A stretch of 20,000 nt of DNA from Raillietiella orientalis (lineage: Eukaryota), in the NCBI GenBank assembly GCA_036172245.1, contig JAYWIR010000035.1, positions 2,278,949 through 2,298,948 on the forward strand, in the 5' to 3' direction. Shown one piece after another: positions 1-20,000 of the stretch. Under the pieces are notes generated by a model that saw only the letters and a program-made list of their open reading frames with translations, was not told the DNA's origin and ran no database searches. The position numbers and the translations under genes were made by a program. Numbering within the stretch: position 1 is the first letter of the stretch; every line of letters begins with the position of its first letter.

Positions 1-780
1 GCGGACTGTGTTTTGGGGGCACACCAGACGGGTGTGCCCCGCTTGTTTGCATTGCTGGCACTGCACGCTCGGACACCTCATTTTCAGGTGACCAAAGCTG
101 CTGCAGCAGCCGCAAAACTTCTGTTTCTCAACGTACCTCACGTCAACGGATTCACCGTTGACGGTGAGTTTGTGGGCAAACTCACATCCTTCGCGAACCG
201 TCACTCGCCCTGCATTCAGCCCGCCAAGCACCCCGTCGTAATCAACAAATGGACTAGGCTTACCGCACAGCGTGTGGACAGTTGCAAATTTTTCTAATTC
301 GTTCCGGACGGCCTCCTTCGTCATCCGGAACGTGATAGCGGTCAGGTGAATGATCACCAACCGGTCTTCAGTAATTGAGAGAAGCCTCCGGCTTCCCATA
401 ATTACGGGGGTTCGCAGAAGTCTCTGCGCAAGAGTTGCCTCCTTGCAAATAACTTCCACAAATTGACCCCCGCTTCTGACGGACATAGCCAGAAGCTCTT
501 GTTTTTGTACGCCGAGAACGCGCATCACCTGAGGGAAGGCGCGCGCGTTCTCGGGAGAATATAAAGCGCCTTCCTTGTATAGGAGGAGTGGGTTGTACCC
601 CTCTTCCAGGTAGGTCCTGATCTCCGCCACAGCCGCCGGCGTGGTCGCGGCAGCCACGGCGTTCCAAGCCCTGGGTAGGGCCGGGGGCGCATCAGTGGGG
701 GCGGAAGCCCCAACTTCCATCTCCTCCGGGGGCAATGGGGTCATCGCCTCCGGATCCTCACCGGTGGTGTAATCAGGCTT
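1..780 (-). CDS. E1 ORF1p (RRM-like region and two CCHC zinc knuckles), 3'-partial
   Basis: Hand translation is open from 780 to 1: MEVGASAPT...YLEEGYNP...VIIHLTAITFRMTKEAVRNELEKFATVH...CGCCSSFGHLKMRCPSVQCQQCKQAGHTRLVCP. The codon matching the E6 ATG is AAG (780-778); in-frame ATGs lie at 744 and 720. It is missing from the ORF track because it runs off the edge. Confidence 0.85.
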
Positions 781-880
781 TGCTGCCTAATCCTCCACCC
801 ACACCACACAAAACACCACCGGAAAGCGAAACTCAGGAGCAGCGAAAAGACACGTTCGCTCGACGCTCCAGAGTCTCTCT
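1..880 (-). mobile_element. E1: 5' part of an L1/Tx1-like LINE (5'UTR and ORF1), continuing off the left edge
   Basis: The minus-strand 5'UTR (GAACGTGTCTTTTCGCTGCTCCT...GTGTGGTGTGGGTGG...GGCAGC) aligns with the E6 5'UTR. The ORF1 that follows is collinear with E6 ORF1. Confidence 0.9.
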
Positions 881-2805
881 GTAAACTTGGTACGCAGGGA
901 CGTTTATTTTTTCAAATAAACTTATATAATGTATGACTGGACCAGTAGTCCCTCCACGCCCTGGAAACATTCAGCCTGCCGGGCTACCGGTGCACAGACT
1001 GGCGCGGTCGACCTCGGAAGCAGAGGATACAAAAAATCAAAGAAAAAGAAAATAAAGAAATAAACAAAACCAATGAGGGAGCGGGAAGAAATGATTGTCT
1101 GCTGGGAGGGTCCGTCATCCTCTGAAGGATGCCGGCAAGCTTTCGCTGAATGCTGGATTCCAGATGGGGCTATCGCTTCGGCATCCTCAGGTAAGGGACG
1201 GCGTAAACGGTTGCGTCCCTGTCGCTGGACCCTCCCGTCGCATTGCTTGATCCCACGACGAATCCGCGTGGGCAGCACAGGTCTGCAGGGTGTCACGGAC
1301 AAAAAGGGGGCGCAAAGCGTCTCTGGGGTTGCCTATGGGGATCCCCAGGGCTGCAGCAAAGCGTTCCCACAAGGGACGGAGGGCAACACAATCCACTAAC
1401 AGGTGAGGGAAGTATTAACTCTCCCTGCACCTGACACAATTTGGGTTGACTCCCCCCCACGTTCAGTGGTGTCGGCGGGCGTTGCAGGGGAGGCACGAAT
1501 GCAACACCAGGAGTGCCGACTGTTGCCACTTCATGGGGACGATGCGCGAGTCCATGAGCACCGGGGGCCACTCGAGATGTTCCTCTGGAACATCCAGTAG
1601 CTCTTCCTAGCGCAAGAGAACATTTGGTGTGGTCCTCGGGGTCGCAGCGTTGGTGAGCTGACCCGTTCACCAATCCTCGATTTTCTTCGCCCTGCTGGAG
1701 ATCTTGACAGTAACCTCTCATTGTGCCGCGACGTCGATGCCCAGATGTTCCCGTAGGGTAGGCAGTACCGCAGCAAGGGAGGTTTCTTGAGCCCACGCTC
1801 TCCTTAGGGGATATTCGATGATTTCTCGGAGCGTTCGGTGGGCGTACGGCCCAAACAGAGCTTTCGCTCGTGTTGCGGGCTCTGCTCCTGAGTCATCGCC
1901 CACGTGCGGACGGTTTCCTGCAACCAGGCAGGACCGTTGGCGGGGCGTACTAGGATCCGCTCCGAGTTGGTCTTCGCGAGCTTGGCCGCCCTTCGAAGCT
2001 GAAGTCCGCAGTGGCAGATGTTGCTTCGGAGTGCAAAGTAGGACGAGAGTCCCGCATTGCCGGTGGCCCGCTCGACGAGGAGACGTGCAGGGAGACACCA
2101 GGCGGTGCACCAATTTTATGACATAAAGGCAACACTCTGGAAATGGAGATGAAGCTCCAGCCGCTCCAGAGTCAGGAGGCCAAGAGCGCCGTACCGACGC
2201 GGACCGCGCAAGTCCGCGAGACGGACTCAAGGCCTCCCTCTGCCCCAAAGGCTATCCTCAGGAGATCCTTCGTCCCTTTCCTAGATTCCACTGAGGGGTG
2301 GCAAACAAAAAGCAAGGGGCGAAGGAGGAGTGCCGCAAAAGCGTTACACGCGGGGCCCGTTCCTGCAAGTAGAACCTGCCGCCTCGGAACGGGCCGATAG
2401 CCGTCACTTCTTTTTGGAGGCAGCCGGACCACGCTTCCGCAGGGGAGTAGTCCCCCAACGGCACACCAATGTACTTGAAGTACCTCACCGTGGGGATCCC
2501 CAAACGGACCCAGTCCTGCTGCCCTGCCCACGCCGCTCCGACTGGCATTACGCACGACTTCGCCCTGTTCACCGTCAGTCCTGTTCCACGACTCAGCAGG
2601 TCGAAGAAGTCCTCGACCGCCGAGGCCGGGGTGGACATAGGCAGCAGCAGCAGAAGATCGTCCGCGTACGCCGAAACCGCAGGCGTACCGGGGCAATCGC
2701 ACGGCAGGTGCGCAAGAGTCTCCCTGTACGCTCTCAGCACCAATTCGAAAAAGGCGCTAAAGAGCAGGGAACTCAGGCTGTCTCCCTGCCGTATGCCGTA
2801 TGCCG
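881..2805 (-). mobile_element. E2: 5'-truncated LINE (RT C-terminal half, C-terminal domain, 3'UTR)
   Basis: Starts at GIRQGDSLSSLLF and contains AYADD and FKYIGV. A pyrimidine-rich 3'UTR and the family 3' motif (881-921) follow. Confidence 0.9.
1095..2805 (-). pseudogene. E2 ORF2 remnant (RT palm/thumb and C-terminus), frameshifted
   Basis: ORFs 2258..2743, 2172..2702 and 1187..1396 carry consecutive segments very similar to E6 ORF2, in different frames. Confidence 0.88.
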
Positions 2806-4290
2806 GACGCGGGGCCTCCGATTGCCCAAGAGGTATTTTCTAATGAAGCCACTTGTCCTTTGTCGAATTTTGGGAGGTATTGTGCGTACAAAAAGCAGGG
2901 GGCGAAAGAGGGGGGTCGCAAAAGCGTTCCACACCGCGGCCCGTTCCTGCAAGTAAAACTTGCCGTCTCGGAACGGGCCGATCGCCAACTCCACCTTTTG
3001 TAGACAGTCGGACCAGGCTTCTGCAGCGCAAAAGTCCCCCAACGGAACTCCAAATTACTTGAAGTACCCGCCCGTGGGGATCCCCGAGCGGATCCAGTCG
3101 GACCGTCCTGCCCGCGACGAGTCCGAAGAAATGATTGACGACTTCGCCCTGTTTACCTGGAAGCCCGTCCCACGGTTCAGCAACTTAAAGAAATCTTAGA
3201 GCGACGATGCCGGGATGGACCCGGAAAGCAGAAGCACAAGGTCGTCGGCATGGGCCGACACGGCAGGCGTGCAGGGACAGCAGCTCGGCAGGGTTGCTAA
3301 AGTCTCCCTGTATGCTCTCAGCACCAACTTAAAGTAGATGCTGAAGAGCAGGGGGCTCACGCTGTCACCCTGCCGGATGTCGCGACCAACCGGCACGCCG
3401 TACACGTGGCGGCTGCTGAAATGGATGTTAATTAGCGCGAAGCGACAGCAAGAGCGCAGGTACGCCAGGAAGACGGCCGGAAATCCCAAGCGTTCCAGAA
3501 GCACCAGGAGGAGCCCCTAGTCGACGCAATCGAAAGCTTTACGCAAATCGAACGCGACCGCAAGGGCTCCGGGCGCCACATCCTCCTCCCGGCTTCCCTC
3601 CGCAAGGTCAGTGAAGAGTCCAGGACTCTCCTGACCTAGCTGAGCCCTGTTGCAACTGACAGAAGGTGCTGGCGAGGAACAGGTTGGCCTCCATGGTTCG
3701 TCCGGGAAAAGCGTAAGTCTGTTCCGTACTGACCACGGATTCCGCTACCCGTCCAAGACGCTCAGCCCAGAGTTTAACGAGCAACTTTGCGTCCACATTC
3801 TCCACAGTGATAGGACGCCAGTTGCCAACGTTGCGCAACTCTCCTCCCTTAGAGAGGAGACGTACTCTAGCTGACCGGAACGAGTTGGGGACATCCCCGC
3901 GTTCACGGATCAGAAAACACAATCTGAGCACCAGGGCAGCCAACACTGCCGCAGAATGTTGGTAGAATTCAGCTGGCAGGCCGTCTTCCCCTGGTGCTTT
4001 GTTTTTTTTGAGTTTTCTGATGGCGGAGACAATCTCCGTCATCGTAAATTCCAGTTCGAAGGTGTGACGTTCCTCCTTCCTTAGCGCGGGAGCACCCTCT
4101 GACAGCAGACTCTGCGCAAAACGGCGCTTTGGTGGTCACTTGGCGTAAAGGGAGGAGTAGAAATCCCGCAAAATGCAACAAACCTACGCTGCAGAAGAGT
4201 CCTCCTGGCCTTCTTCGTCCAATAAGCAGGCAGACCCGGATTGCCAGGCCTGCCTCTCAGCTTAAGCCTTGATTTCCGCCAGGCGACGGT
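2806..4290 (-). pseudogene. E3 downstream part: ORF2 linker and RT up to the thumb, degraded and 3'-truncated
   Basis: KAPGEDGLPAEFY, NWRPITVENVDAK, DLRKAFDCVD, IRQGDSVSPLLF, AHADD and ...RPRVR are present, with several stops and frameshifts. Confidence 0.88.
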
Positions 4291-4328
4291 CGTTCTCCTT
4301 TGCCAGGCAACCCTGGCAAAGGAGAACG
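4291..4328. repeat. Perfect 17-bp inverted repeat with a 4-nt loop at the E4 5' junction
   Basis: cgttctcctttgccagg-caac-cctggcaaaggagaacg. Confidence 0.95.
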
Positions 4329-5445
4329 CCTGGATGGTTTGTGGCCCCGCCAACTTCTCCGCTTGGCTGGAAGAGACTTTTGGCACCTGGACCAAGCAGA
4401 AACAGAGGTGCGAAGACCGGATGAACTGCCTACGAGTCGGCTTTTACGCCCGCCGAACTCTTTGTGAAATTATTGAACTTCCACCGAGTTGCACGTGGGC
4501 GGAAGGCACACCCCTTGTTACGGTGATGCCCTTCCTCCAAAGGGAGCTTCATGGAAGCCGGAAGCCAAAGTGGCAAGTCCGCTGCCGTATCGCAGGCAGA
4601 GAGAAGATGATGATCGGCTGGACCATGGGGGAGTTGACAGATGCAGCGACCCCTTGTCTCCAGCCGCGTGGATTAAGAAAATGGGGCGAGCTGCTCGGCA
4701 TCCGATTGGATTACCTGAAGTGGCCCCCGGTTCTACTTGGATCCAGGATTCTTCCCCTGAAGTGGCAAGAATCGGCGCTTCTGTGGCTGCATTGGGGTCT
4801 ACCCTGCAACGCGCGCCGCCTCAACTGGACGCGAAGAAGAGTAAATCCTGTGTGTGCCAGGTGTGGGGAGCGGGAGTCGCTCCCCCACCTCTGAGTTGAA
4901 TGCCCTGCCGTCCGGATTCTTTGAAATCGTCTTAAAACGGTCCTTGGGATACCCGATGCTGGCAATGTTGGATGTGTCTACAGTCTTGTGTTCGCGCGGG
5001 ATATCCTCAGTCCAGCCGCAGCCCTGGCAGCACTTTGCTGCATTCGTGGTATCGTGGCATCCTGGAGTGATGCCGAAGATGAAGGCTGCATCGTGAGGGA
5101 GGTCATCGAGTATGCTTCTCGCTTCCTGCAGAGAGCTACCCGATGGCCCCATCGAGGAAAACTGAAAATGCAACTAGAAGGCATCCTGCGAAGGAGGGGC
5201 CCTCACAGCAGTTTTCTGTGATCCCTTCCCGGCCCTCCAAACTTTTTTTTGTGGTTTGTTTTTCTCTTTTATTTTATTTTTGTTCTCTCCCCCATCCCCA
5301 TCCACTGCCGAGGGGAGCCACACGGAGCTGCGTTCCGGTGTCCCGGCAGTTCAGGTATTGCGTGGCCATCAGTGGGGCCTTGTACCACGTTCTGTATTGA
5401 CTGTTGAAATGTTTTTAATAAACGTCCCGGCGTATCCGGGTGGAA
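4291..5445 (+). mobile_element. E4: 5'-truncated LINE (ORF2 C-terminus and 3'UTR) inserted antisense
   Basis: ATLAKENAW...CARCGERESLPHL*VEC...RGPHSSFL* ends at 5221. A T-rich UTR and AATAAACGTCCCGGCGTATCCGGGTG follow. Confidence 0.9.
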
Positions 5446-6329
5446 TCGCCGAATCCCCGGGGCAGACGTTGCACAGCGAAAAGTTCGCAAAACTCCCGGA
5501 CCGAGTCCTTAAATAGGTCCCAATCCGCGAAACTCTGGAGTGTGACGCCTCGCAGGAATTCGCGATGATGTTCTTTCGCTACTCATAGACGCGTCCAGTC
5601 TACTGGCATACGCCAATCCCTGGATGGCGGTCCCTTGTCGCGCGGGCGCATCTCCAATAATAACCGGGAATGGTCTGACAGCGTCGATCCAAGTGTCCCT
5701 ATTTTTCCGACCCGTGTGCACAGATCGTCGTCGAGGAAGACGTGGTCCACGCTGCTGAAAATCCCGCTTATTTCTGTGAGCAAGTTGCGCGCGAGCATGG
5801 CGGCGCACAACTTGTTGATCGTGTTCCCCTATGTTCCCGGCTGATCTTAGATCCGGCGGACGTTGAAATCCTTCGCTGGCATATGCGCCTTTCGCACGTC
5901 CGTTTCCACCAGACATTCGCACTTCAAGGTTTCCAATTACGCGTTGCGCTTTTGGTATCCTTGTTTACCGCTAGGTGCGTACACATTGGTGACGATGAGG
6001 TCGACCGATTCGGATTATCTGAGAGTCTGTTGGCCGATTTCTCTGTCGTCCCCAAAGCGCATGCCCTTCACGTACGCATTAATGGCTGGCTTTAGAAACA
6101 ACACGACCCCGCAGGTGTTGCGGGCGCCGCATCGTGAGTACAACCGCCCCCCCGCGATCGTATCGATCTCCTGGGCGTCTTTTGCTGTGATCACGTCTAT
6201 CTCTTGCAAAAGCACCAGGTCGAAATCTTGCTGGGTTGCGGCTGTGTCCCGTCTGTTTCCGTCATCGCGCAGCCCGTTGACATTCCAACTGGCCGCGCGG
6301 ATCCGACGGCGACAGGCGAGTCCAGGTGT
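5446..6329 (-). pseudogene. E3 ORF2 N-terminus: APE endonuclease and start of the linker
   Basis: SWNVNGL, LLQEID, NVYAP, KDFN, VDHVF and LSDH motifs, with internal stops. Confidence 0.88.
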
Positions 6330-7692
6330 TATCCCTGGGAACCTGGCGGTGGGGCTCCCGCCACCTTTTGGGGCGAGTCGCTGGACGGGGTTGGCGTCTT
6401 GCCCACCAACTCCCCATCCTGCTTACGTGCCGACGTCTCCGGCTGCTCGTGCGAAGGGGGTGTTGCTCGTACCTGTTGGCTCACATCCATTGGTGCGGGT
6501 GGTCCAGGTTCGGCGGTTTCAGGGAGCATTGCTGCCCCTGCTTACCCTCCTGCATTAAAGTAGCCTTCTCGTCGGCTTCCGCACATATGTGATGCCCGAC
6601 TTGGGCTTCCACGCTGCCACCCTCTGGTTCCTCGTCCAGTGCATCCCCCTCGCGCGGAGGCGGAAGGCACCATCGGGGTTTCTGAAATTTTCGCTCCGCT
6701 TTCCGTGGTGATGCTTCAATAGAGGATGCACTTCCGGCCTCCCTATCCGACTCACCTGCGGAAGCCACTTTAACCGATGCCGGCCTACGTAACCCCTTTC
6801 GCGAAGGGTTCTTGCGTTCGGCAAGCGTTGCCGCAAGCTCCTCGGCGGCCTTCTCGAAGGCTGCGTCCTTGGTTTCGGCGATGTTGTCGTCCGGCTGGCC
6901 CTCTCCGCAAGCAGGGGGTGGGTTTTTGCGCGCATTCGTCGCGGCGGGAAAATCGATCGAAGCCGTATCGCCTCCGGTGGTGTCGGCTGGAACGTGACTG
7001 CGCTCCAGCGTAACCGTGCATTTTCGGAGAGTTTTTACGCGCGAAACAGGATTGAGCTTATGTTCCGGCCGCTGCCTTTTCTTTTTTCTTCGAAACATGC
7101 TTGTCCTTTTTCTCTTTTTTGGCTTTGACTAGCTGGAGCCCTGTTCTCCCTCTGCGGTTTCGGGAAGATTTTTCTCCGATGCCGCGCTTGCAGCTTGGGT
7201 TATTGGCAGCTTTTCTCGGCCAGTTTCACGGTTTCCCAATTTCTCTTTCCCCGCGCGTTTCCCTTGCGCCTTTTTGGCGGCCGAGGAAATTGGGGTGGGG
7301 CGTTTAGGGCACACGCGACGGACGTGTCCCTTTTCCCCGCACAAGTAGCATACGATGTTTGGGCACCTCTTTCGGATGTGTCCGACCGCATCGCAGTAGT
7401 GGCAATACCGTGGTTTGACCGCATACCAGACGTCTATTGGTTCTTCCGCGGCCTCAAGCTTGTAAGGAAGCTTCGCTTGGTCTTTTGGGGTTACACGTGC
7501 CTCGGCGAGGCCCCCGAAGTGGCGTCCGTAGCCCTCAAATATTGTGGGTTTCGGCTACAGCGGGTGTACGTCCCCGTATTTACGTAGCTCACCTTTGACG
7601 GCAGTGCGCGTCAGGCGCTTACATATTCCTGTGAAGTGGACCACTACCGAGTGGTCCATTGACACAAGGAAGAAACAGTCCGACATTCGTCG
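6329..7692 (-). pseudogene. E3 ORF1 remnant (5'-truncated; two CCHC knuckles, low-complexity C-terminus)
   Basis: VVVHFTGICKRLTRTAVKGELRKYGDVH; CHYCDAVGHIRKRCPNIVCYLCGEKGHVRRVCP; FEKAAEELAA matches E6 FARAAEELAA. It ends GSQG* at 6329. Confidence 0.87.
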
Positions 7693-9797
7693 TTATCATC
7701 TGGGTACGCCCGGGGCGTTTATTTGTAAACTCTACATGCGTGGTACGAGGCTCCACCACGGCCGCAAACACAGGACCTGTCGGAACACCGAGACTCAGCC
7801 CGGCGTGACACTCTCCGACAACAAAGGCGGATAAGGATAAGACAAAAATAATAATCAAAAATGGAAACAAACAAAAAGAAGTTGGAGGGCAGAGAAGGGA
7901 TCACTCGTCGCTGTAAGGAGGGCCCATCCGTCGAACGAAGCCTTTGAGGTCTGTCTGCATATTCCCTAGTTGGCGCAATCGGACAGCTCTTTGCAAAAAG
8001 CGTTGGGCATAAGGAATGACATCCCTCGCCTGTGGACCCACTTCTTCGTTGTTGGCGTAGCTGCATGCCGCCACGATGCAACAAGCGCAGCACAAGGTTG
8101 CGATGGCTGCGGCTGGCTGCAGTACGTCCTTCACAAAGAGGGGCCGCAGAACTTCTCTAAGGGTGCTGCCCGTAGGGAGCACGAGGGTCATTCCGAGCCG
8201 TTCCCAAAGTTGTCGGAGGGCAGCACAATCCACAATAAGGTGGGGGTGCGACTCCCGCTCCCCACACCTGGCACACGCAGGATCAACAGCTCCTCTCGTC
8301 CAGTGGAAGCGGCGCGCGTTGCAGGGTAGACCCGAGTGCAACAGGAGACACGCCGACTCTTGGAACATGAGGGGCAGGATCTTGGATTCTTTCATCACCG
8401 GGAGCCACTTCAGCTCATCCATGGGGATGGCGAGCAGCTCGCCCCATCTTTCTAATCCTCGCGGCTGGACGCTCAGGGTCGTGGCGTCGGCCAGTTCTCC
8501 TGTTGTGCAGCCGCTGATCAACTTCTCGCGTCCCTCGATGCAGCAGGAGACTTGCCACCTTGGCGTCCGGCTGCTGTGAAGTGCCCTCCTCAGGAAGGGC
8601 AGCGCCGTAGCTAGGCAGGTCGTCTCTGCCCACTTGCATCTTGCTCGACTCATCAGGAGATCCCGCAGCGTCTAGCAAGCGTAGGGGCTGCATCGGAGAC
8701 GATTCTACGTTTCGTGGCTGCTCTGGTTAACCACTGCCCACGTTCCAATTTTCTCCTCCATGCCAGCGGGGGAGTTGGCGGGCAGCAAACAATCCAGCTG
8801 TTCTCCTTGGCCAATGTTGCCATGCGCCCGAGCAGTAGGCCGCATCTTCGCAACTTCAGGTAACGGCTCAGAAGAAAAGACGCGAGTCCATCGCACCGGG
8901 ACACACGGCTGGCCAGGAGGCGGGCTGGAGTGCACCAAGGGGTGCTCCACATCTTCGCTGCGATGGCGAGGGTTCGCCAGTGCAGCTGCTTCTTCAAGCG
9001 CTCCAGCGTCAGGAGGCCAAGACCGCCGTCCCGACGCGATGCGCACAAGTCCTTCAGAGGGACTCGGAGCCTCCCTTTGCCCCAAAGGGCGATGCGGAGG
9101 AGTTGCTTTGTCCTCTTCTTTGATTCCACGGTGGGGGGGCAAACAACAAGCAAAAGGCGGAGGATGAAGGCCGCGGAGGCGTTTCAAACGGCGGCCCGTT
9201 CCAGCAAGTGAAACTTGCCTTCCAGGAACGGGCCGAACGCCGTCTCGACTTTTTGGAGGCAGCTGGACCACGCCTCCGCAGGGGAGAAGTCCCCTGACGG
9301 CACACCGAGGTATTTGATGCACCTCACCGTGGGATCCCCAGACGGAACCAGTCCTGCTGCCCTGCCCACGTCGCTCCTACTGGCACCAGCGACGACTTCG
9401 TCCTGTTACCCTGTAATCCGGCCCCACGACTGAGCAGGTCGAAGAGATCTCCGACCGCCTTTGCCGGGGTGGACATTGGCAACAAGAGCAGAAGATTGTC
9501 GGCGTACGCTGCTACGGCGGGCGTGCCAAAGCACGAGCTCGGCAAGGAAGCCACAGTCATTCTGTACGCTCTCAGCATCAACACAGCGTAGGTGCTAAAA
9601 AGCAGGGGGCTGAGGGTATCTCGCTGCCTTATGCCCCGCCGCACCGGCACGCCATACACCTTGTGACCACTGAAAGAGAAGGTAATCATCCCATTCCGCC
9701 AGCAAGAGCGCCGGTAGGAAATCAGGGTGGGTGCGAAGCCCATGCGACCCAGGAGCTCCAAGAGGAGTTCCTGGTCTACACAGTCGAACGCCTTGTG
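7693..9797 (-). mobile_element. E5 3' half: RT from HKAFD onward, C-terminal domain and 3'UTR
   Basis: HKAFDCVDQ, AYADN, KYLGV and CARCGERESHPHLIVDC; stop at 7901; 3' motif at 7693-7730; frameshifted. Confidence 0.9.
9782..9797 (+). repeat. Left copy of the E6 target-site duplication
   Basis: agtcgaacgccttgtg matches 15363-15378 at 15 of 16 positions. Confidence 0.9.
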
Positions 9798-9891
9798 CGT
9801 TCTAGGGTGGACGTGTTTTTTCGGTTCTCCTCGTGCCAGGAAGTCTCCCCCAGTGCAAGCGTCGTGTGGTTCGGTGGTCGATCTGGCAGCG

Positions 9892-11567
9892 ATGCCTGAC
9901 GCGACCACCAGGGATGGCCAGGGGGCAGCGGCAACGCCGCTCCCAGAGGCGCTGGAGAGCCAGGGGGCGGCGGCAACGTCGCCCCCAGAGTCGATGGAGG
10001 TGGGGGCATCCGCCCCCACAGAATCGTTCCCCGCTGCAGCGCGGGCGTGGAGCGCCGTTGTGTCGGCGCCATCGCCTGCAGCCGCGGCGGAATTGTCGGC
10101 CTATGTAGAGGAAGGGTACAACCCCTCAGTGTTCTACAAGGTAGGCAATTTATATTCTATAGAGAGCGCGCGCGCCTTCTCGAATGGCATGCGCGATCTC
10201 GATGTGAAAGAGAAGGAGCTCAGCGCTATGACCATCCGCAGCGGGGGTCTGCACGTTGATGTCATCTGCAAACATGCAGAGCTGTCCCAACGACTGCTTA
10301 AAACCCCCGTTGTGATGGGGACGCGCAGGCTCCTCCCCACTACGGCGGACCGCAGCATGGTGGTCCACCTGTTAGGCGTCACCGCGCGAATGCGCAAAGA
10401 ACAGGTACGCGCCGCTTTGGAACAGTTCGGAACGGTCCACGCGCAGTGGACGAAAGTAAGTCCTTTCGAGGACTACACGGGGCTGCAACACGGCCTCACT
10501 GCTGCGCGCGTGACCGTTCGGGAGGGCTGCACTCTTCCCCACAAACTGGTGGTCGAAGGCGAAACCGTCGACCTCTGGTATGTGGGGAAGCCGAAATACT
10601 GTGGCTTCTGCAATGCGTCGGGCCACCTCAAAAAGAGGTGTCCCAATGTGCAGTGCCAAGTATGCGGCACAATGGGCCACACGAGGAAGGTGTGCCCAAA
10701 AGCAGCAGTGCGGGTGGTTTCCAAGAGAAGCCTTAAAAAGCACGCCCGGCTTTCTGCAGAAAACGCTGGCGGCGAAAGCTGCCGCGAAGGTTGTGCCACC
10801 CGCGCCCAAGACCCAGGCCGCACCCGAGACCCCGGCGACCAACGCCGAAAAAGTTGAGGGAGCCGGCCTGGAGACTGGGTGGCAAGTGGCAACGGCCAAA
10901 AAATCAAAGAAGGAGAGGAGGATGGAATAGAAAATCGCCTACCAACAGAAGAAGAAAGAGCAGGGTAGCGCGATAATTAAAGAGTGCAGCGTCGTTGTCG
11001 AACAAGTTCTCGATGTTGCCGAACGGTGCCGGAAAGAACTCGCCGCTACCGACGACCTCCCCTCTGTTGACACAGTCAACAGCGAGGGGAGCGAGCCGGC
11101 GGCGGCGTCCGTCATCGACACCACCATCGATGACGTAGCCTTCGCGCGAGCCGCGGAGGAGCTGGCAGCCTCGTTGCAGCCAGAATTCTCCAAGGCTGGC
11201 AAGAAGGCCGTAAGGCGTCCGGCCTCCCCTCAGGAGTCCCCCACTTCCGACCCCGAGGTGGAGGCCGGATGCGCAGCCTCCGTTTCTACGGCACCGCGCA
11301 AGAAGGCTGGACGTAAGTCCACAAAGCCAAGGAAGCTCGTCTCCCCCGTCGAAGGGGAAGAGATGGCTTCCGCAAGCGAGGGTGCCATGAGCGTGGGAAA
11401 CTCTCGGGACCCGTCGTCCGAGAGACTCCCACGCGCGGACACGGAGGGGATGGAGGGGGTGGAATCCGAACAGGTGCCTCAGGTGCCTGAGAAGGCCGAA
11501 ACCCCCATGGACATCATGCCCGCCTCGCAAGGAGGGCTCCCCCACACCTTAATCTTCCCAGCAGTAA
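9892..11567 (+). pseudogene. E6 ORF1p (RRM-like region and two CCHC knuckles; Tx1/L1 type)
   Basis: ATG 9892 (MPDATT) is placed by alignment with E1. CGFCNASGHLKKRCPNVQCQVCGTMGHTRKVCP is present. There is a frameshift near 10700-10750, a TAG at 10928 and a probable deletion near 11520. Confidence 0.85.
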
Positions 11568-14500
11568 TGCCGGGAATCTCCTCCCGCCGTCGTCTGCGCA
11601 TCGCCGTTTGGAACGTGAACGGCATGACAGACGCCGGCAGGAGACGAGACATATCCGCCCTTCTGGAGTCCTACGACCTTGCGCTGCTGCAGGAGATCCA
11701 CGTGATCTCTGCAGAACAAGCGCAAGAGATCGAACGGATCTGCAGAAAGCAGCTCTGGTACAGGTGTGGGAGAGCAAAAAGTTGCGGTGTCGCCTACCTG
11801 CTTCGGCCAGCCGTCGAGGCCGCGGCTCGGGGCGTGCGGTTCGACGATCACGGTCGTGTCGGCCAGCTGACTCTCAGGTGGTCCGATTCGATCGATCTGA
11901 TCGTCACGAACGTGTACGCACCGAGCGGCAAGGACCCGATCACCAGGAGGGCGAGGAAAGAGTTTTTCCTTGCCCTCCGGCGAGACTGGCTGACCAAAGC
12001 AGGCGTGCAGTATGCCCATCTGGTTGCAGGCAATTTCAACGTTCGCCTGAAACCAGATGGGCAGAATCCTGAGCGTGACCTGGTCAACGAGGTGTGCATG
12101 GCGGTGCACACCTGTAATTTGTTGGCCAGTGCACCGGGGATGGAAGACAGCATTGACCACGTGTTTCTTGACGAGAACCTGTGACCTCGCGTGGGCAGGC
12201 CCGGCAAGTTACCGTGCGAGCTGTCCGACCATCGCCCTCTAGTCCTCGAGATCCATCCGCGCGACAGGGGCTCCCCCTCGTCAGCGTGGCGACTCCCAGG
12301 GGACTGGCTGAAGCTCCCGGACACGGCGGAACATCTCCGCACGTTCACACGGAGCTTTAGGCTGCGGACACTCCAGGATTGGGACCGCTTCTAGCGGTCG
12401 GTCCAGGAGTTCTGCGACCAGTTCCCTCTGCACCGCCTACCTACGGGTTTTTAGACCGGGGTCCGTAACGAACGAGCCTACCTGCAGGCCTGTCGTTACG
12501 CCACGACCCCCGACATCCGCAAGCTGGCGGAATACAAAGCGGGAGCCCAGAGGCAAGCCTGGCAGTCCGGATCGGCGAGCTTCCTGGACGATCAGGGCCA
12601 GGAGCACTCTGCACCTGCCCAAATCCGCGGCCTGCTGCGGAGTTACTACTCCTTCCTGTATGCCTTGGCACCTCCAAAGAGGAACGTCTCACGACTCCTG
12701 CTTCCGGAAGGCGCTCCAGCGATCGGGGAGGAGCAGAGAAAGACCCTCGACGAGCCTTTCACGATGGACGAGATCCTCTCGGCCATCGGAAAGCTCAAGA
12801 GGCGAAAGGCTCCAGAGGAGGACGGTTTGCACGCGGAGCTTTATCAAACTCTCGCGGCTGAGCTTACCCCCCTGGTACAGCAACTCAGCTTGCTGATACG
12901 CAAAACAGGTGACGTTCCCGCCTCGTTTCGTTCGGCAAAGGTGCGGCTCCTCCGGAAGGGAGGAGACCTAAGGAGCATGAACAACTGGTGTCCCATCACA
13001 ATATTGAATGCGGACGCCAAGTTGATGGCTAAGGTTTGGGCAGAGCGTCTGGGACGGGTTGCCAACATCTTCATCATCCCGGAACAGACATATGCTGTTC
13101 CCGGGCGAAGCATGGAGGCGAACCTGTTCAACGCTCCCACCTGGCTAGAGCTCCAACATGAAAGGAGATTGGTGCGCAGCCGGAATTCCGGTGCGTACGC
13201 CGGCAAGGAGTTGAATGGTCGGTTGGGGGAGGGAGCCCTTGCGGTCGCAATCGACTTGCCAAAAGCATTCGATTGCGTCGACCAGAATCTCTTTCTGGAA
13301 CTTCTGGAACGCTTGGGCTTCCCGGCCTCATTAGTAACCTATCTGCGCTCCTGCTGGCGCGATGCGATCATCAATGTTACTTTCAGCGGGCAGACCGTGC
13401 ACGGCGTGCCGGTGCGGCGTGGGATCCGGCAGGGAGACAGCCTGATCCCCTTGCTCTTCAGTACCTACTTTGAGTTGGAGCTAAAAGCGTACAGGGGAAC
13501 TCTGGCGCACCTGCCGCACGACTGTGCCGGTACGCCGGCCGTTTCAGCATACGCGGACGACCTTCTGCTGCTGCTCCCTATGTCCACCCCGGCTGCGGCG
13601 GTCGAGGAGTTCTTCGACCTGCTGCATCGGGGAACCGGACTTACGGTGAACAGGGCGAAGCCGTCCGTGATGCCAGTTGGTGCGGCGTGGGCAGGGCAGC
13701 AGGACTGAGTCCGTTTGGGGATCCCCACGGTGAGGTACTTCAAGTACCTTGGTGTGCCGTTGGGGGACTACTCCCCTGCGGAAGCGTGGTCCGGCTGCAT
13801 CCAAAAAGTAGAGACGGCTATCGGCCCGTTCCGAGGCGGCAGGTTTTTCCTGCCTGAACGGGCCGCGGTTTGGAACACGTTCGCGGCTCCTCTCCTCCGC
13901 TCCCTGCTTTTTGTTTGCCGCCACAGAGAGGATCAAAAAGCGGACGAAGGACCTCCTCCGTATCGCCCTTTGGGGCAACGGGAGGGCCCGAGTTCGCTTT
14001 AAGGACTTGTGCGCTCCTCGTCGGGATGGTGGTCTGGGCCTCCTGACGCGGGAGCGGCTGGAGCTTCAGATCCAGTTCCGCTTTTCGGCACTCTTTCCAG
14101 AGTTGTGGTGCACCTGTTGGTGCGTCCCTACACGTCTCCTACTCCAGCAAGCCACCGGCAAGTCGGGACTGACGTCGTTTCTTGCACTACGTCGCCGCGT
14201 CAGCCGATGCGGAATGCAGCTACGGAGGGTGGCTGCGCTTTATCGGAAAAACCCAGGATTGCTCACCTGTCGCCCGTTTGACGGTAGTGCCTGGTTGCTG
14301 GAAACCGTTCAAAGGTGGGGACAGTTCGGCATGCAACGCTCCCAACAGGAACGAAGGTTCCTGTCTGGGGGTTACAGAAGTTGCACGCTCCGCGAGATCC
14401 TGGAGGATCCAAAGAAGAGAGCGTGGGCAGGAAGAACCCCCCTCGCTGCTGCGCTGCCCTCCCTGATGGAAGATCTGGACAGCGATGTTGCGGCGAAGTG

Positions 14501-15146
14501 GGTGGTTACAGAAACAATCTCCGGAAAGGAGAAGAAGATAGGAGAGTGGAAGACGGGCCAGTTAACAGACGCTGCGACCCCGAGTACGCCTCCCAATGGA
14601 CTTCTGCGCTGGGGCGCGCTGCTCGATGTTCCCATTGAACATCTGAAGTGGCCCCCGGTGCTCATGAACACTTCCGCCCTCCCCTTAAAATGGCAGGAGT
14701 CGGCTATCCTGTTGCAGCACTGGGGACTCCCCTGCAACGCCCGCCGACACCACTGGACCTGGGGAGCGGTGGACCCAAATTGCGTTAGGTGTGGGGAACG
14801 GGAGTCCCTCCCCCAACTGCTAGTGGATTGTTTTGCCCTTCGGCCCCTTTGGTTTCGCTTTGCCGCGGCCATCGGAATCCCCTGCGGCAACCCCAGGGAC
14901 GCACTGAAAGCCCTCTTCGTTGCCGACGCCCTTCGGCCAGCTGCCTCGTTAGCAGCTTGGTGCTGCCTACGCGGGATCGTCACCGCTTCGAGCAAGGCTA
15001 CGGGAGGACAACGCGACCAGAGTGCCATCCAGCACGCCTCCCAGTTCCTGAGGAGGGCGTCCCGATGGCCCCACCTGGATCCAGGAATACAGAAAAAGCT
15101 TGCCGGCATCCTGCAAAGGATGCAACGGCCCCACCAGCAACTGTGA
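11567..15146 (+). pseudogene. E6 ORF2p: APE endonuclease, reverse transcriptase and C-terminal zinc-binding region
   Basis: WNVNG, LQEIH, NVYAP, GNFN (catalytic D>N), IDH, SDH; DLPKAFD, GIRQGD, YADD, KYLGV; CVRC..Q..C. In-frame stops occur at 12182, 12392, 12452 and 13706, with a frameshift near 13920. Confidence 0.93.
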
Positions 15147-15322
15147 TCCCCTCCCTTACCCTCCCAACTTTTCTTTTCTTTTTTGTTTTGTTTTTTGTTT
15201 TCCCCCCTTCCCCCTGCCGCCGTGGTGGACCGTACCCGTCTTCGAACCGGTGACCCGGCAGGCTCTGTGTTTCTTCGTGCGTGGCTGGAGCAATGGTCCA
15301 GCCACCGCACGTCTTTGTAAAA

Positions 15323-15362
15323 GTTTATTTTACAATAAACACCCCGGCGAAATCCGGGTGAA
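15323..15362 (+). other. Conserved LINE 3'-terminal element (AATAAA-containing hairpin followed by a GC hairpin)
   Basis: GTTTATT-ttac-AATAAAC a c CCCGG-cgaaat-CCGGG tgaa. Homologous motifs lie at 881-921, 5411-5445, 7693-7730 and 16616-16658. Confidence 0.8.
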
Positions 15363-15378
15363 AGTCGGACGCCTTGTG
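15363..15378 (+). repeat. Right copy of the E6 target-site duplication
   Basis: agtcggacgccttgtg; the minus strand reads AVDLHKA, which continues into HKAFDCVDQ at 9797. Confidence 0.9.
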
Positions 15379-16615
15379 GAGATCAACTGCAAGAGCTAGG
15401 GCCCGCTTCCCCGCCCGGGGGTCCCTTTTCAGCCCGGCTGTTGGCCTTAATGTGGGGTTGCCGACATTCCCTATCCCTTTCTTGTCTTTTCTCTGCAGGT
15501 GCACCCTTGTGCTTGCGAAGAAGAGGTTGGCATCCATACTTCGCCAGGGAACAGCACAAGTCTGCTCCGGGCTAATTTCGGATTCTGCCACCTGCCCCAG
15601 ACGTGAAGCCCATAGCCCTGCTATTAACTTAGCGTCCGTATTCACGATCGTCATCGGACGCCAGTTCTTTCAATCCCTGAGGTCTCCCCCTTTCGGAAGG
15701 AGCCTCACTCTGGCTGACCGAAACGAGGCGGGAACATCGCCTTCGTCTCGGATCAGCCTTGTCAGCTGAAGCAACAGGGGTGCCAGCTCTTCCGCGAAGC
15801 TCTGAAAGAAGTCCGAGGGCAAGCAGTCTTCCCCTGGAGCTTTTTGCCTCTTAAGCCTTTTGATACCGGCGAGAAATTCGCCTGTGGTAAAAGGCTCGTC
15901 GAGGCTTTCCAACTACTCCTCCCCTATTGCCAAGGCGCCATCCGGAAGCAAGCGCCGAGAGGCGTCTCAATCGGGGGGCTCCCTGGCGTAAACGGAGGAA
16001 TAAAAACTCCGCACAAGATGCCGTACCGACGCCGGGGACGAACATTCCGGCCCTGGTCGTCCAGCAAGCTGGCCGACCCGGATTGCCAGGCTTGGCGTTC
16101 GGCCCCGGCGCGGTACTCGGCCAGGCGACGGACATTAGGGGTTCTCTCGTACCTACGAGCCTGTAAATAGGCCCGATGGTTGCGAGCACCCTCGCCGAAT
16201 CCGGGGGGCAGTGGATCCAGGGGGAACTGCTCACAGAACTCGCGGACCGATTCCTTAAAAAGGTCCCAGTCCTGGAGTTTCCGGAGCGTGACACCTCTCA
16301 GGAATTCGCGAAGGTGTTCCTTCGCACCTCAGAGTCGCATCCAGTCCCCCGGCAAACGCCAATTCCTGGATGGCGGTCCCTTGTCGCGAGGCCGCATCTC
16401 GAAAATTAACAGGGAATGGTCCGACAACGTCGACGCAACCCTTCCCCGTTGGCCGACCCGTGAACACAGGTCAGCGTCGAGGAAGACGTAGTCGATGCAG
16501 CGAACCATTCCCCTCTCACCCGCGAACTAGTTGCGCGCACGCATGGCGGCGCACAACTCGATCATCGCGTTCTCTTGTGTTTCTGGCTCACCTTTTAGCA
16601 GACGGAGATTGAAAT
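15363..16615 (-). pseudogene. E5 5' half: APE C-terminus, linker and RT N-terminus
   Basis: FNLRL...IDYVF...LSDH, KAPGEDCLPSDFF, PEQTCAVP and ALALAVDLHKA, with stops and frameshifts. Confidence 0.9.
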
Positions 16616-19502
16616 TTATCACGCAGTCACGCCGGGGCGTTTATTAATAATAATAAACTGGTCAGGGACAATGTCCTTAACCAACAGAACGACAGAGAAC
16701 ATAGAAAAATTACCGGCACGCAGGCCTGGTAAACAAACCGCTCGCAGCGTGGAGGGAATGAGGGGACACAAACAAAAATGTAAAACAGGAGGGAAGGGTA
16801 ACGGGTTCTTGGTTAGGCTCCGTACTCACGGGGATTTAAACGATGAGCACCTAAAAGGTTCCGGAGCCTATGGGGACGCGTGTGCAAAAAGAAAATACAA
16901 AATTAGTTTCTAGAGGGTAGGGCAATGATCACCGGGTTGGCCGCTGCTGAGGGTGTGTAAACCGGCGGTGTATTGCGGCGAGATTCCTTTTTGTCTCCTC
17001 TGTCAAATGAGGCCATCTAGCGGATGCTCCCATGTAGAAGGATGCTTTGCTGATTACCTGTTGGTGCTGTCCGTTGATTACCAACGCCTGGCGCACGGAA
17101 ACTATCGCGCGTATGCAACCAATAGTTGCAATCCTTGCGCTTAGTGACAGCCCGCTCGGCGTGAAGAACCGTCGCAGCAAGTCTCTTGCGGTGTCCACGG
17201 GATGCAATAGTGCTGTTGCCAGCCTACGCCACAGTCCTTGTAGGACACCGCAGTCCAGAAGTAGGTGCGGAATCGACTCCGTCGATCCGCACCGAACGCA
17301 GTTCGCAGACGCAAGTCCCCCGGAGTCACGATGCCAACGCTCGTTGCACTGAAAACCCCAGTGAACGAAAAGCAGCACGGCTTGTTTCCAAGCAAGGGGA
17401 AGCAGCGAACTGTCAATGCACTGTGGAGGGACTACAAGTTCTTCGGGGGTGACCGCAAGTTCTTCTGCCCACCGGAGGAGTCCCTTTGTAGTAGGACGAA
17501 AAGTGGGGGCCTCCGCCTACTCACTCGTCTTCTAGGCGACAAGGTGTTCCGTTTTTCCCCCTATCGTGCAGGAAACCTGCCACCTCGCCGGTTGGTAACT
17601 GGCGTTTCTTGCTTTGAGGGCAGACAGCGCTGCGGCAAGAGGCGTGGCAGCCAGGGTAGAAAACTTTACCTCGTCCTGCAGTACTTCTTCCAACGATCGT
17701 GGAAAACATCGGCGCAGGGGGCGAAGATCTTCAAAGCGTATTCCTTGAAACGCCGCCCAGGATTCAACCGACTCCTGCCTCCAAGATTCAAAGTTCATTG
17801 GGCGGCAGGAGATCCACGAGTGAGCTTCCAGAAGTGCGGTCAACTGCCGCAATGGAAACCCGAAACCCCGCTTCCTGTATTGAGTGCACGGCAAAAGCGA
17901 GAGAAATCCTCCGCTGCCGGCGCATCTCCGCAGGAGAATGCGGGCTGGCACACACAGGGGGGATGTGCATAGCTGGGCACACAGTGCCAACAGTCGGAAC
18001 TGCACCTGCAGTCCGATTCGCTCCATTGTCAAGATACCCAAACCAGCATCCCGACGCGGAGCTAACAAATCTTTAAGGCGGATCCTGGATCTCGCCGGAC
18101 CCCAGAGAGCGTTCCTGAGCAGGCGTTTAGCCCGCTGTATTGCCGCATAGGGGAAGTCCAAAACAAAAAACAGGGGACGGAGGAGGGGGCCACAAAGGTG
18201 TTACAAATAGTCGCCCGTTCCTGCAAGGTAAACTTGCCGTTAAAGAACGGGCTGATGGCCAACTGTGCTTTCTGAAGACAGTCCGCCCACGCTTCGGCTG
18301 CGCCGAAAGCGCCCAACGGAACGCCAAGGTACTTAAAGTACCCGCCCGTGGGGAAACCCAGGCGCATCCAGTCGGACTGCCCCTCCCACGACGTACTCAC
18401 AGAAACGACCACGCTCTTCTCTCCGTTCACGCTCACGCCCGCTCCCCGACGTATCAGGTCGAAGAAATCCTCGACACTGGACGCCGGGGTGGACATGGGG
18501 AGCAGAAGAAGCAGGTCATCAGCGTAGGCGGCCACTGCAGGCGTTCCCGGGCAGGAGATTGGCAAGTGAGACAGCGTCAGCCTGTATGCTCTTAGCACCA
18601 ACTCAAAGAAGATGCTGAAAAGCAACGAGCTTAAGCTGTCGCCATGTCGGATGTCCCTACGAACGGGGATACCATACACGCGGCAGCCGCTCAAAGTAAT
18701 GCAGGTTAGCGCGTGGCGCCAGCACGCGCGCAAATACAGCAGGAGTTGCGCCGGGAACCCAAGGCGTTCCATAAGCTCCAAAAGCAGCTTCTGGTTTACG
18801 CAGTCGAACGCCTTGTGGGGATCGACCGCGACCTCCAAGGCACCTGGAGTTCGATCCTGCCGTCGGCGCCTGTTCTTCTTGCCTGCGGCAGTGACTTTCG
18901 AAGCAGCCTGGCTTTGCTGCGCCACAACTTCCTGCAGCTGCATCCATGTACGCGCGAAAAGGATGTTCGCCTCCATGGATCGTCCCGGAACCGCGTAGGT
19001 TTGTTCCGGGCTCACCACAGATTCCGCGATACTTCCTAACCGCTCGACCCACAGATTGGAAAACAACTTGACGTCCGAGTTCAAAAAGGAGATCGGACGC
19101 CAGTTGTTAAGTTGACGCAAGTCTCCGCCTTTCGGCAGGAGACGCACCTTCGCTGAGCGGAAGGAATCCGGGACAATCCCGGATTCACTCATCAGCGTCG
19201 CGAGTTTCAGCATCAAGGGAATGAGCTACATCGCAAAGCACTGATAAAACTCTGCAGGGAGCCCATCCTCGCCTGGCGCCTTTCGTCTCTTCAGCGCAGC
19301 GATTGCGGACGGAAATTCATCCGCCGTGAAGGGCTCGTTGAGACGTTCGCGTTCCTCCTCGCCGACAACACAAGCATCCTGAGACAGGAGTATCTCAAAA
19401 GGAATATCCTCCGTCGGGGATTCCACGTACAGCGAGGAGAAGTAGCGTCTCACAATGCGGCGTACTTCGGCTGGGACGCCTCACGTACTCTCTCCGCCGC
19501 CT
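16616..19502 (-). mobile_element. E7: LINE with RT, C-terminal domain and 3'UTR, starting in the ORF2 linker
   Basis: KAPGEDG, NWRPISFLNSDVK, DPHKAFD, AYADD, FKYLGV and CVRCGSTESIPHLLLDC; stop at 16929; 3' motif at 16616-16658. Confidence 0.92.
16929..19502 (-). pseudogene. E7 ORF2 remnant
   Basis: ORFs 19226..19453, 18062..19216, 17532..18161 and 16929..17378 are consecutive ORF2 segments broken by stops or frameshifts. Confidence 0.9.
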
Positions 19503-20000
19503 GAAGGCCTGCGGCGAGATTGGCTGGCCGAAGCAGACATGCGAAAGGCGCACCTCATTGCCGGGGACTTTAACGTCCGCCTGCTGGCAGGTGCGCCCGA
19601 CATTCGCGCACAGCTGGTCAACGAGATGTGCGCTGCCATGCACGCGCGCAACTTGTTGGCCGGTGACGCCGGGACGGAGACGAGGATCGACCACATGTTC
19701 TTCGACAACCACCTGTGTTCGCGGGTGGGAAATCGAGAAGCAGTGCCATCCGAACTTTCCCACCATCCCCGGCTGGCGCTAGAAATACACCCGCGCGGTA
19801 GAGGTCCACCCTCCACAGCGTGGCGTTTGCCAGGGGACTGGTTGCGCCTCGAAGGAGCAGCGCAACATCTTCGCTCGTTCCTTCAAGGCTTCCATCTGCA
19901 GTCGCTCGCGGACTGGGACGACTTGAAGAGCTCACTCCGCGAGTTCTGCGACCAGTTTCCCCTGAACCGTCTCCCTCCAGGTTTCGGCGAAGGGCGGGGG
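19503..20000 (+). pseudogene. E8: APE C-terminal half and linker fragment, running off the right edge
   Basis: Open frame EGLRRDWLAEADMRKAHLIAGDFNVRL...RIDHMFF...LSHHP...AWRLPGDWL...FCDQFPLNRLPPGFGEG. Confidence 0.9.

Follow-up and report, generated by a model that had tools for sequence, protein, structure and literature searches.

Strong indications of a self-inserted nest of one LINE family in a 20-kb stretch of the Raillietiella orientalis assembly

Composition of the window

In this study, we analyzed a stretch of 20,000 nts from the Raillietiella orientalis assembly (GCA_036172245.1; contig JAYWIR010000035.1, positions 2,278,949 to 2,298,948, forward strand), hereafter referred to as the window. 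The whole window is almost certainly occupied by a nest of one family of long interspersed nuclear elements (LINEs) that has inserted into itself. An nhmmer search with a single query, a near-complete copy named E6 (9798-15363, + strand), matched 19,468 of the 20,000 bases (~97% of the window); with E6 itself set aside, the coverage was 13,902 of 14,434 bases. Two of the gaps in the nhmmer coverage belong to the family as well: 4294-4450 corresponds to the C-terminal domain of another copy (P4) by tblastn, and 16617-16886 is the diverged 3' untranslated region (UTR) of P8, which closes with the terminal motif of the family. The leftover gaps consist of a 28-nt filler (19479-19506) and a few junction bases. 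In addition, a self-comparison of the window by blastn yielded 24 related pairs with 65-82% identity.

A total of ten pieces, derived from seven or eight insertion events, were counted (Table 1), and all nine junctions between them join one family member to another, with no more than 28 nts of filler. These results support, at a level well above chance, two claims of an earlier sequence-only reading of this DNA, namely that the window contains a single LINE family and that every resolvable junction is family-to-family. The eight pieces of that reading have to be corrected to ten, two pairs of which are the halves of split host copies (named H1 and H2).

Table 1. Pieces of the LINE nest and other mapped features of the window (element coordinates refer to E6; ORF, open reading frame)
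Feature	Position	Strand	Content	Support
P1	1..878	-	5' UTR and part of ORF1, E6 ~9798-10710; leaves the window; 5' end agrees with the full-length 5' end of E6	tblastn, ORF1 aa 32-332, 55% identity; nhmmer E = 7e-85
P2	879..2798	-	5'-truncated, E6 13421 to 3' end; 3' end in contact with the 5' end of P1	blastn, 73% identity over 1948 nt; nhmmer E = 3e-299
P3	2799..4290	-	3' half of host copy H2, E6 ~12513-14001	nhmmer E = 7e-198
Filler	4291..4311		17-nt inverted copy of the P4 start, then CAAC	
P4	4312..5444	+	5'-truncated, E6 ~14237 to 3' end; antisense in H2	tblastn, C-terminal aa 141-444; nhmmer
P5	5445..7692	-	5' half of H2, E6 ~10290-12457; ORF1 end with CCHC knuckle, ORF2 N-terminal extension, endonuclease	nhmmer E = 5e-95; zf-CCHC E = 1.5e-8; tblastn
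P6	7693..9797	-	3' half of host copy H1, E6 13259 to 3' end	nhmmer E = 5e-215
E6	9798..15363	+	Near-complete 5,566-bp element	Pfam; ORF and stop map
3' terminal module of E6	15323..15363	+	GTTTATT-TTAC-AATAAAC, CCCGG-CGAAAT-CCGGG, TGAAA	
P7	15364..16614	-	5' part of H1, E6 12032-13276	nhmmer E = 6e-129
P8	16615..19478	-	E6 ~12610 to 3' end	RVT_1 E = 2e-17; nhmmer E = 2e-197
Filler	19479..19506		28 nt between P8 and P9	No nhmmer match
P9	19507..20000	+	Inverted piece, E6 11973 to ~12466; leaves the window	nhmmer E = 1e-50

The window has 104 stop-to-stop ORFs with a length of 100 aa or more, of which 54 were scanned against Pfam, and all matches were LINE domains. RVT_1 was found in five ORFs (three above the curated cut-off), Exo_endo_phos in one, zf-CCHC in two (one above the cut-off), and zf-RVT (PF13966) in three (E = 1.6e-4, 2.8e-3 and 8.2e-3, none reaching the 27.5-bit gathering score). 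No tandem satellite was detected in the window, its sole tandem repeats being four short arrays of two to three copies inside elements, nor was any tRNA, Rfam family or telomere-type repeat found in these 20 kb. The GC content is 53-63% throughout (1-kb windows). The TA dinucleotide is strongly depleted over the whole window (observed/expected 0.54), and the GC content at third codon positions of the E6 ORFs is 0.67-0.71.

Structure of the near-complete element

E6 contains ORF1 (9892-10857), with two CCHC knuckles, and an ORF2 frame (10931-15146) that comprises an N-terminal extension, an apurinic/apyrimidinic-type (APE) endonuclease, a reverse transcriptase (RT) and a C-terminal Cys-rich domain resembling zf-RVT, followed by a 3' UTR (15147-15363). 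The Exo_endo_phos match (E = 4.1e-9, at 10931-12184) and the RVT_1 match (E = 3.2e-14, at 12455-13708) lie in the same frame, and an SDH motif can be read at the end of the endonuclease. Four premature stops (12182, 12392, 12452 and 13706) interrupt ORF2, whose reading frame also changes between 13708 and 13812; none of the copies in the window has an intact ORF2. In ORF1, a 42-bp unit occurs twice in the N-terminal part (9917-9999, +) with 87% match.

The stretch of the ORF2 frame that precedes the endonuclease (10931-11590, +) encodes ~220 aa and is acidic and rich in Ser and Ala. No Pfam match to this N-terminal extension was found. It has been kept between copies, with 41% identity by tblastn between residues 91-152 of E6 and the corresponding part of P5 (6616-6801, -), and is a candidate tethering or homing region.

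The 3' terminal module of E6 also ends P2, P4, P6 and P8. Alignment of these five 3' ends gave the consensus AATAAAC-NN-CCC..GCG.., in which AATAAAC and CCC are invariant, with GAAA, GGA(A), ATAA, ATAAA or ACAG as the final letters. GTTTATT, the exact complement, precedes AATAAAC in three of the five copies, and CCCGG/CCGGG arms follow it in two. Folding of the five 80-nt 3' ends gave z-scores between -2.6 and +1.1 and thus no statistical backing for any structure other than the conserved complementary words. A poly(A) tail is absent from all five 3' ends, and no run of eight or more A, or of eight or more T, occurs at any element end. Zepp, a LINE known for nested clusters, has a poly(A) tail; unlike it, the window copies end in a hairpin-type motif with only two to three terminal A residues. 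Further upstream, a T-rich tract directly after the ORF2 stop opens every 3' UTR (15169-15202, +; 5243-5290, +; also in P2, P6 and P8), which in E6 amounts to 2.8 copies of TTTTGTTTTCTT. It is followed by a conserved word, CCGGTG.CCCGGCAGG, ~100 nts before the end.

Junctions and marks of insertion

E6 lies antisense inside the host copy H1 and splits it into P7 and P6, whose halves meet at element coordinate 13259-13276. It is flanked by a 15-bp target-site duplication, GTCGAACGCCTTGTG (9783-9797) and GTCGGACGCCTTGTG (15364-15378), in which 14 of 15 positions are identical. Because of this duplication, the insertion of E6 can be attributed to target-primed reverse transcription, an endonuclease-type insertion into duplex DNA. 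The host copy H2 has been split in a similar way by P4, also antisense, and the coordinates of P5 run on into those of P3 on the far side of P4, save for ~63 bp of H2 that has been lost there. No target-site duplication was found around P4. At its 5' junction, 4291-4307 is the exact reverse complement of 4312-4328 (17 nts), and the junction between P2 and P3 carries a 7-nt direct repeat (CGGCATA/CGGCATA) as microhomology. P2 and P4 are 5'-truncated copies; H1 and P8 start inside the element within the window.

Three junctions lead without filler from the 3' end of one copy into another (P8 into P7, P6 into P5, and P2 into P1). In the first, the 3' end of P8 abuts P7 at H1 coordinate 12032. This junction and that of P6 with P5 are the 3' sides of nested insertions in the same orientation, whose 5' sides lie beyond the window. 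At the third, the 3' end of P2 meets P1 at its full-length 5' end, leaving no more than ~5 bases unassigned, and the other side of P2 lies in H2; this joint requires either a template switch or a second insertion into one and the same site.

P9, at the edge of the window, most likely belongs to the P8 insertion, as its 5' segment in inverted orientation. In one public DNA run (X1), a single contig of 3,755 nts carries P9-like and P8-like sequence in one orientation, and P8 and P9 therefore belong to one kind of element. Target-site duplications of ~15 bp, 5' truncation, junction microhomology and 5' inversion of the twin-priming type are hallmarks of human L1 insertion. The window family resembles human L1 in all of these features, the 5' inversion being likely, as well as in its RT and endonuclease. 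It differs from human L1 in having no poly(A) tail, in the CCHC knuckles of ORF1, and in insertion sites that are not A/T-rich.

Divergence and selection

The copies in the window differ from each other by 22-35%, with ~78% identity as the upper limit for any pair. Sixty or more comparable codons were available for 22 copy pairs. The ratio of nonsynonymous to synonymous divergence (dN/dS) was 0.21-0.54 in 19 of them, with a proportion of synonymous differences (pS) of 0.44-0.72; the other three pairs were saturated at synonymous sites (pS 0.76-0.78). Such low dN/dS values imply that most of the 22-35% divergence arose under selection, in separate active lineages. Thus, the window copies come from several old lineages. 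In the 580-nt overlap between P2 and P3, the divergence is 27% and dN/dS is 0.35, and internal or tandem duplication as the origin of this overlap was rejected on these values. The earlier claim of repeated retrotransposition, as opposed to tandem duplication, agrees with this dN/dS well below 1, and also with the target-site duplication, the two split hosts and the 5' truncations.

The density of in-frame stops per 100 aligned codons decreases from H2 (1.16; 13/1124) through H1 (0.80; 8/998) and P8 (0.37; 3/802) to E6 (0.24; 4/1693), which is the order expected from the nesting.

Relatives of the family

On sequence grounds, the family is assigned to the L1/Tx1 group of non-LTR retrotransposons (those that lack long terminal repeats), the closeness of its RT to L1/Tx1 being judged against the groups present in the searched libraries. 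The best match of the E6 RT in PDB is human L1 ORF2p (E = 4.5e-34), with R2 at 2e-10, and the endonuclease matches the L1 endonuclease with E = 1e-4. Named Tx1-type proteins from Xenopus, alligator, paddlefish and pufferfish align to the E6 RT with 28-32% identity and 131-140 bits, and a grass L1-like protein with 25% identity and 89 bits. These matches, together with an APE endonuclease N-terminal to the RT, uphold the previous description of the elements as L1/Tx1-like.

Close relatives are very few among public proteins. In two word-indexed searches with the E6 RT, the sole family-level protein was P0013 (70% identity, 619 aa, from a 2.9-kb contig), and the next best matches had 26-27% identity. 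When 1.84 billion cluster representatives were searched exhaustively with a profile, 599 hits reached E <= 1e-30. Eleven hits among the best 150 were tested, of which P0013 and P0021 (132 aa) are family-level; the others have less than 40% identity over long stretches. The best non-family match is a sea-turtle gene model (P0016), and its named relatives are Tx1-type, including Xenopus Tx1 ORF2. No Zepp or ZeppL element occurs among the named hits of these searches. P0016, P0017, P0018 and P0022 are long gene models with two to three RT segments each; they were probably drawn across adjacent LINE copies, irrelevant to the window locus. Among metagenome contigs, a scan for RT patterns gave 149 pattern matches, none of them related, and a scan for the 3'-end motif gave eight loci, none of which proved related by nhmmer or tblastn. 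A search of the ESM Atlas with the RT returned generic reverse-transcriptase clusters only, with no usable taxa.

In a preliminary tree of 31 rows, built by a quick search, the family forms its own clade (SH-aLRT 100, stem length 1.52). The seven animal rows named as Tx1-type all fall in another supported clade (99) that excludes the family, and the plant row is separate from it as well. Tx1-clade LINEs (Xenopus Tx1 ORF2 'YTX2' and those of fish and reptiles) are the best named relatives in sequence, with the same order of Exo_endo_phos, RVT_1 and zf-RVT (the last a sub-threshold match here). The window family differs from them in lacking a fixed target and, in this quick tree, in its separate clade.

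Related sequences were also found in X1, which contains 0.23 of the sampled words of E6; no public RNA runs with E6 words were listed. At an identity of at least 90%, 323 X1 contigs could be placed on the window (20 at 99% or more, 108 at 95-99% and 195 at 90-95%). X1 represents another genome or other copies of the family. Most of the eight joints listed in X1 consist of one foreign copy that matches different window copies in turn. Two X1 joints (5441/16273 and 11728/16614) resemble further family-in-family junctions, each over 25-28 nts only. The summed depth of X1 contigs is highest in some 3'-end bins (31.7 at 668-1334 and 26.9 at 16009-16675) and lowest over H2 and P4 (~1.6-4.7), as would be expected with 5' truncation and if the oldest copy has only a few near relatives.

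Choice of insertion sites

The five host sites lie at element coordinates ~10300, 12032, 12450-12513, 13270 and 14001, three of them entered in sense and two in antisense orientation. No word at the nick is shared by all five, and the sites are not A/T-rich. Because the sites differ in coordinate and orientation and have no common nick word, a fixed target, including a defined sequence within the family's own copies, is not supported. The target flanks of E6 (15364-15403, +) and H1 (7653-7692, -) both contain GTCGGAC and then CCTTGTG at different spacings; random pairs of 40-nt pieces from the window shared two ordered 7-mers in 0.24% of 200,000 trials, or ~2% over ten pairs. CGAA lies within 10 nts of the nick in three of the five 3' flanks. 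Both observations were made post hoc and are weak leads to a nick-site preference.

Discussion

Nests of a single LINE family have been described in green algae. Zepp, an L1-type LINE known from Coccomyxa subellipsoidea C-169, an alga once called Chlorella vulgaris C-169, is described as forming nested clusters of 1.5-42 kb with frequent 5' truncation, arrays rich in 3' ends, 61% GC, no satellite DNA and two ORFs encoding a Gag-like protein and an RT (PMC3446292, PMC8226300). As far as these descriptions go, the window is Zepp-like in being a GC-rich, satellite-free nest of one LINE with two ORFs, insertion into existing copies, and an array rich in 3' ends and 5'-truncated copies. In Chlamydomonas and its relatives, ZeppL-1_cRei and other ZeppL elements are reported to form family-specific and highly localised L1-type nests that coincide with centromeres and CENH3 (PMC8226300, PMC9940879, bioRxiv 10.1101/2025.03.28.645958). 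The reported ZeppL element is ~8 kb long and makes up ~60% of clusters of 51-320 kb together with other transposons (PMC9940879, bioRxiv 10.1101/2025.03.28.645958), whereas the window element is 5.6 kb long and its family covers ~97% of the window. Only a single family of ZeppL is present in C. reinhardtii, whereas the seven or eight elements in the window are all at least 22% apart. Judged from such published descriptions, the window family shows the same family-specific nesting habit as ZeppL, and the likeness to Zepp/ZeppL nests claimed by the sequence-only reading is maintained to this extent (PMC8226300, PMC3446292).

The structure of the window most probably arose by successive events of target-primed reverse transcription, each landing in an older copy of the same family. 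In this history, H2 (P5 and P3, minus strand) would be the oldest copy. H1 (P7 and P6) may then have entered H2 at ~10300, followed by P8, with its inverted 5' segment P9, which would have entered H1 at 12032. E6 would have entered H1 in antisense at ~13270, making the 15-bp target-site duplication, and P4 would have entered H2 in antisense at 12450-12513 with a small target deletion. Finally, P2 would have entered H2 at 14001, and the full-length P1 directly follows the 3' end of P2. The element RNA may be recognised via the conserved 3' terminal module, with its two putative small hairpins ending in GAAA, and reverse transcription would start at this module without a poly(A) tail. Homing would be directed to a domain already made of the family, via chromatin or a tethering protein and not via a fixed DNA word.

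Every reconstructed insertion lies in the family and nothing else is present in the 20 kb, which points either to homing to the family's own domain or to survival only there. We slightly favor domain-level homing, as proposed for the centromeric clusters of Zepp/ZeppL, which the varied host sites leave as the likelier mechanism. If so, the homing behaviour may be old, given that the same 20 kb houses several lineages whose divergence took place under purifying selection. The nest may plausibly mark a centromere or subtelomere. A more specific reading, which we regard as rather doubtful at present, is that of a centromere-type ('centrophilic') LINE that forms its own long-branch clade in the L1/Tx1 group, separate from the named Tx1 clade, has a hairpin 3' end without poly(A), and is possibly unrelated to ZeppL.

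Several observations weigh against homing to an old, self-made domain. There is no sign of a recent burst in the window, since no pair of copies is closer than ~78%. The CpG dinucleotide is not depleted (observed/expected 0.95), and the methylation-decay mark of old heterochromatin is thus missing. The stop densities of P2 (1.70; 9/530 codons) and P4 (1.00; 3/299) are not clearly below that of their host H2 (1.16), so that the age order is only partly borne out; all of these stop counts depend on alignment to the reading frame of E6. The earlier statement that the copies are diverged stands, and their unequal decay follows the nesting order for H2, H1, P8 and E6, but not for P2 and P4. None of the eight X1 records listed, out of 340, bridges a junction of the window with at least 31 nts on both sides. 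Moreover, the local picture would be no different if the family were abundant and dispersed in a repeat-rich genome.

This last point leads to the chief competing explanation, a passive pile-up, in which the dominant repeat of the genome inserts approximately at random, survives in a gene-poor, recombination-cold stretch and becomes nested by chance, as in mammalian L1-rich regions. The wide divergence with dN/dS below 1 could equally reflect successive subfamilies of one long-lived lineage, and the insertion sites share neither sequence nor orientation. The 323 contigs of X1 (1,482 million letters, 13.4 million records) with at least 90% identity to the window also indicate that the family is multi-copy in a large or mixed data set. 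However, chance nesting would have to account for 20 kb without any other repeat class or unique DNA and for reconstructed insertions that all went into the same family; furthermore, the family is very rare in public proteins (two of 11 tested hits family-level among the best 150 from 1.84 billion representatives). We consider such a pile-up possible, on balance unlikely. Self-targeting by sequence, with an endonuclease that recognises one DNA word inside the element as in many Tx1-clade and R-type elements, appears very improbable. The nearest named relatives are Tx1-type proteins and the Tx1 group has many site-specific elements; GTCGGAC followed by CCTTGTG is common to two of the five 3' flanks and CGAA lies near the nick in three. 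Yet the five sites occupy five element coordinates in both orientations with no common nick word, and the shared words stand at differing distances from the nick. Sequence-specific self-targeting was largely refuted by these five differing host sites.

The orientation of the pieces raises another possibility, namely head-to-tail addition at or near telomeres, in the manner of HeT-A/TART or as a subtelomeric Zepp-like array, with the window being subtelomeric. Five of the seven elements share one orientation, three filler-free junctions run from a 3' end to a 5' side, and Zepp is reported to have been first found near a telomere (as cited in PMC3446292). We nevertheless judge a chromosome-end array to be improbable: the window lacks telomere-type repeats, two internal insertions are antisense, one of them with a 15-bp target-site duplication that indicates insertion into duplex DNA and not end addition, and the junctions of P8 with P7 and of P6 with P5 are fully explained by nested insertions in the same orientation. 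For the joint of P2 and P1, and for this joint only, formation in tandem, by template switching of the RT between RNAs or by a second insertion that re-used the regenerated target, is an evenly balanced proposition. The immediate contact of the P2 3' end with the full-length P1 5' end speaks for it. A single event sits less well with the apparently different ages of the two pieces, as ORF1 of P1 is open to the window edge with no in-frame stop in 259 aligned codons against nine in 530 codons of P2, the counts being small. Finally, repeat nests are hard to assemble, and the X1 records listed gave no independent support for the junctions, so that mis-assembly might be suspected, as might the duplication of a single element, either segmental or in tandem. 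An artefact of this kind is hardly credible: a target-site duplication, matching host halves, microhomology and intact 3' termini are unlike chimeric joins, and the divergence and dN/dS of the P2/P3 overlap argue against duplication after insertion.

Nests composed of LINEs alone constitute the centromeres of Chlamydomonas and Coccomyxa, and what guides such elements to a domain of their own is a question still to be answered. The kind of structure reported here is already known from Zepp and ZeppL. What is new is a very divergent family with a hairpin-type 3' end and no poly(A), and the presence of several old lineages in one nest; as our literature searches were directed at Zepp and not at this family, we do not claim that the family itself is undescribed. 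If the family proved to be merely abundant, the window would be an ordinary repeat graveyard. A further family of this habit, highly divergent and visibly independent of a fixed target, would offer a comparison point for the determinant of homing. If the nest is of the centromere type, it would be of practical use in finding the centromeres of an unstudied genome. If a centrophilic LINE of its own lineage is indeed present, LINE-built chromosomal domains would have had an independent origin, and homing would be an old trait encoded by the element, with the ORF2 N-terminal extension and ORF1 as candidates, and not a by-product of the survival of junk.

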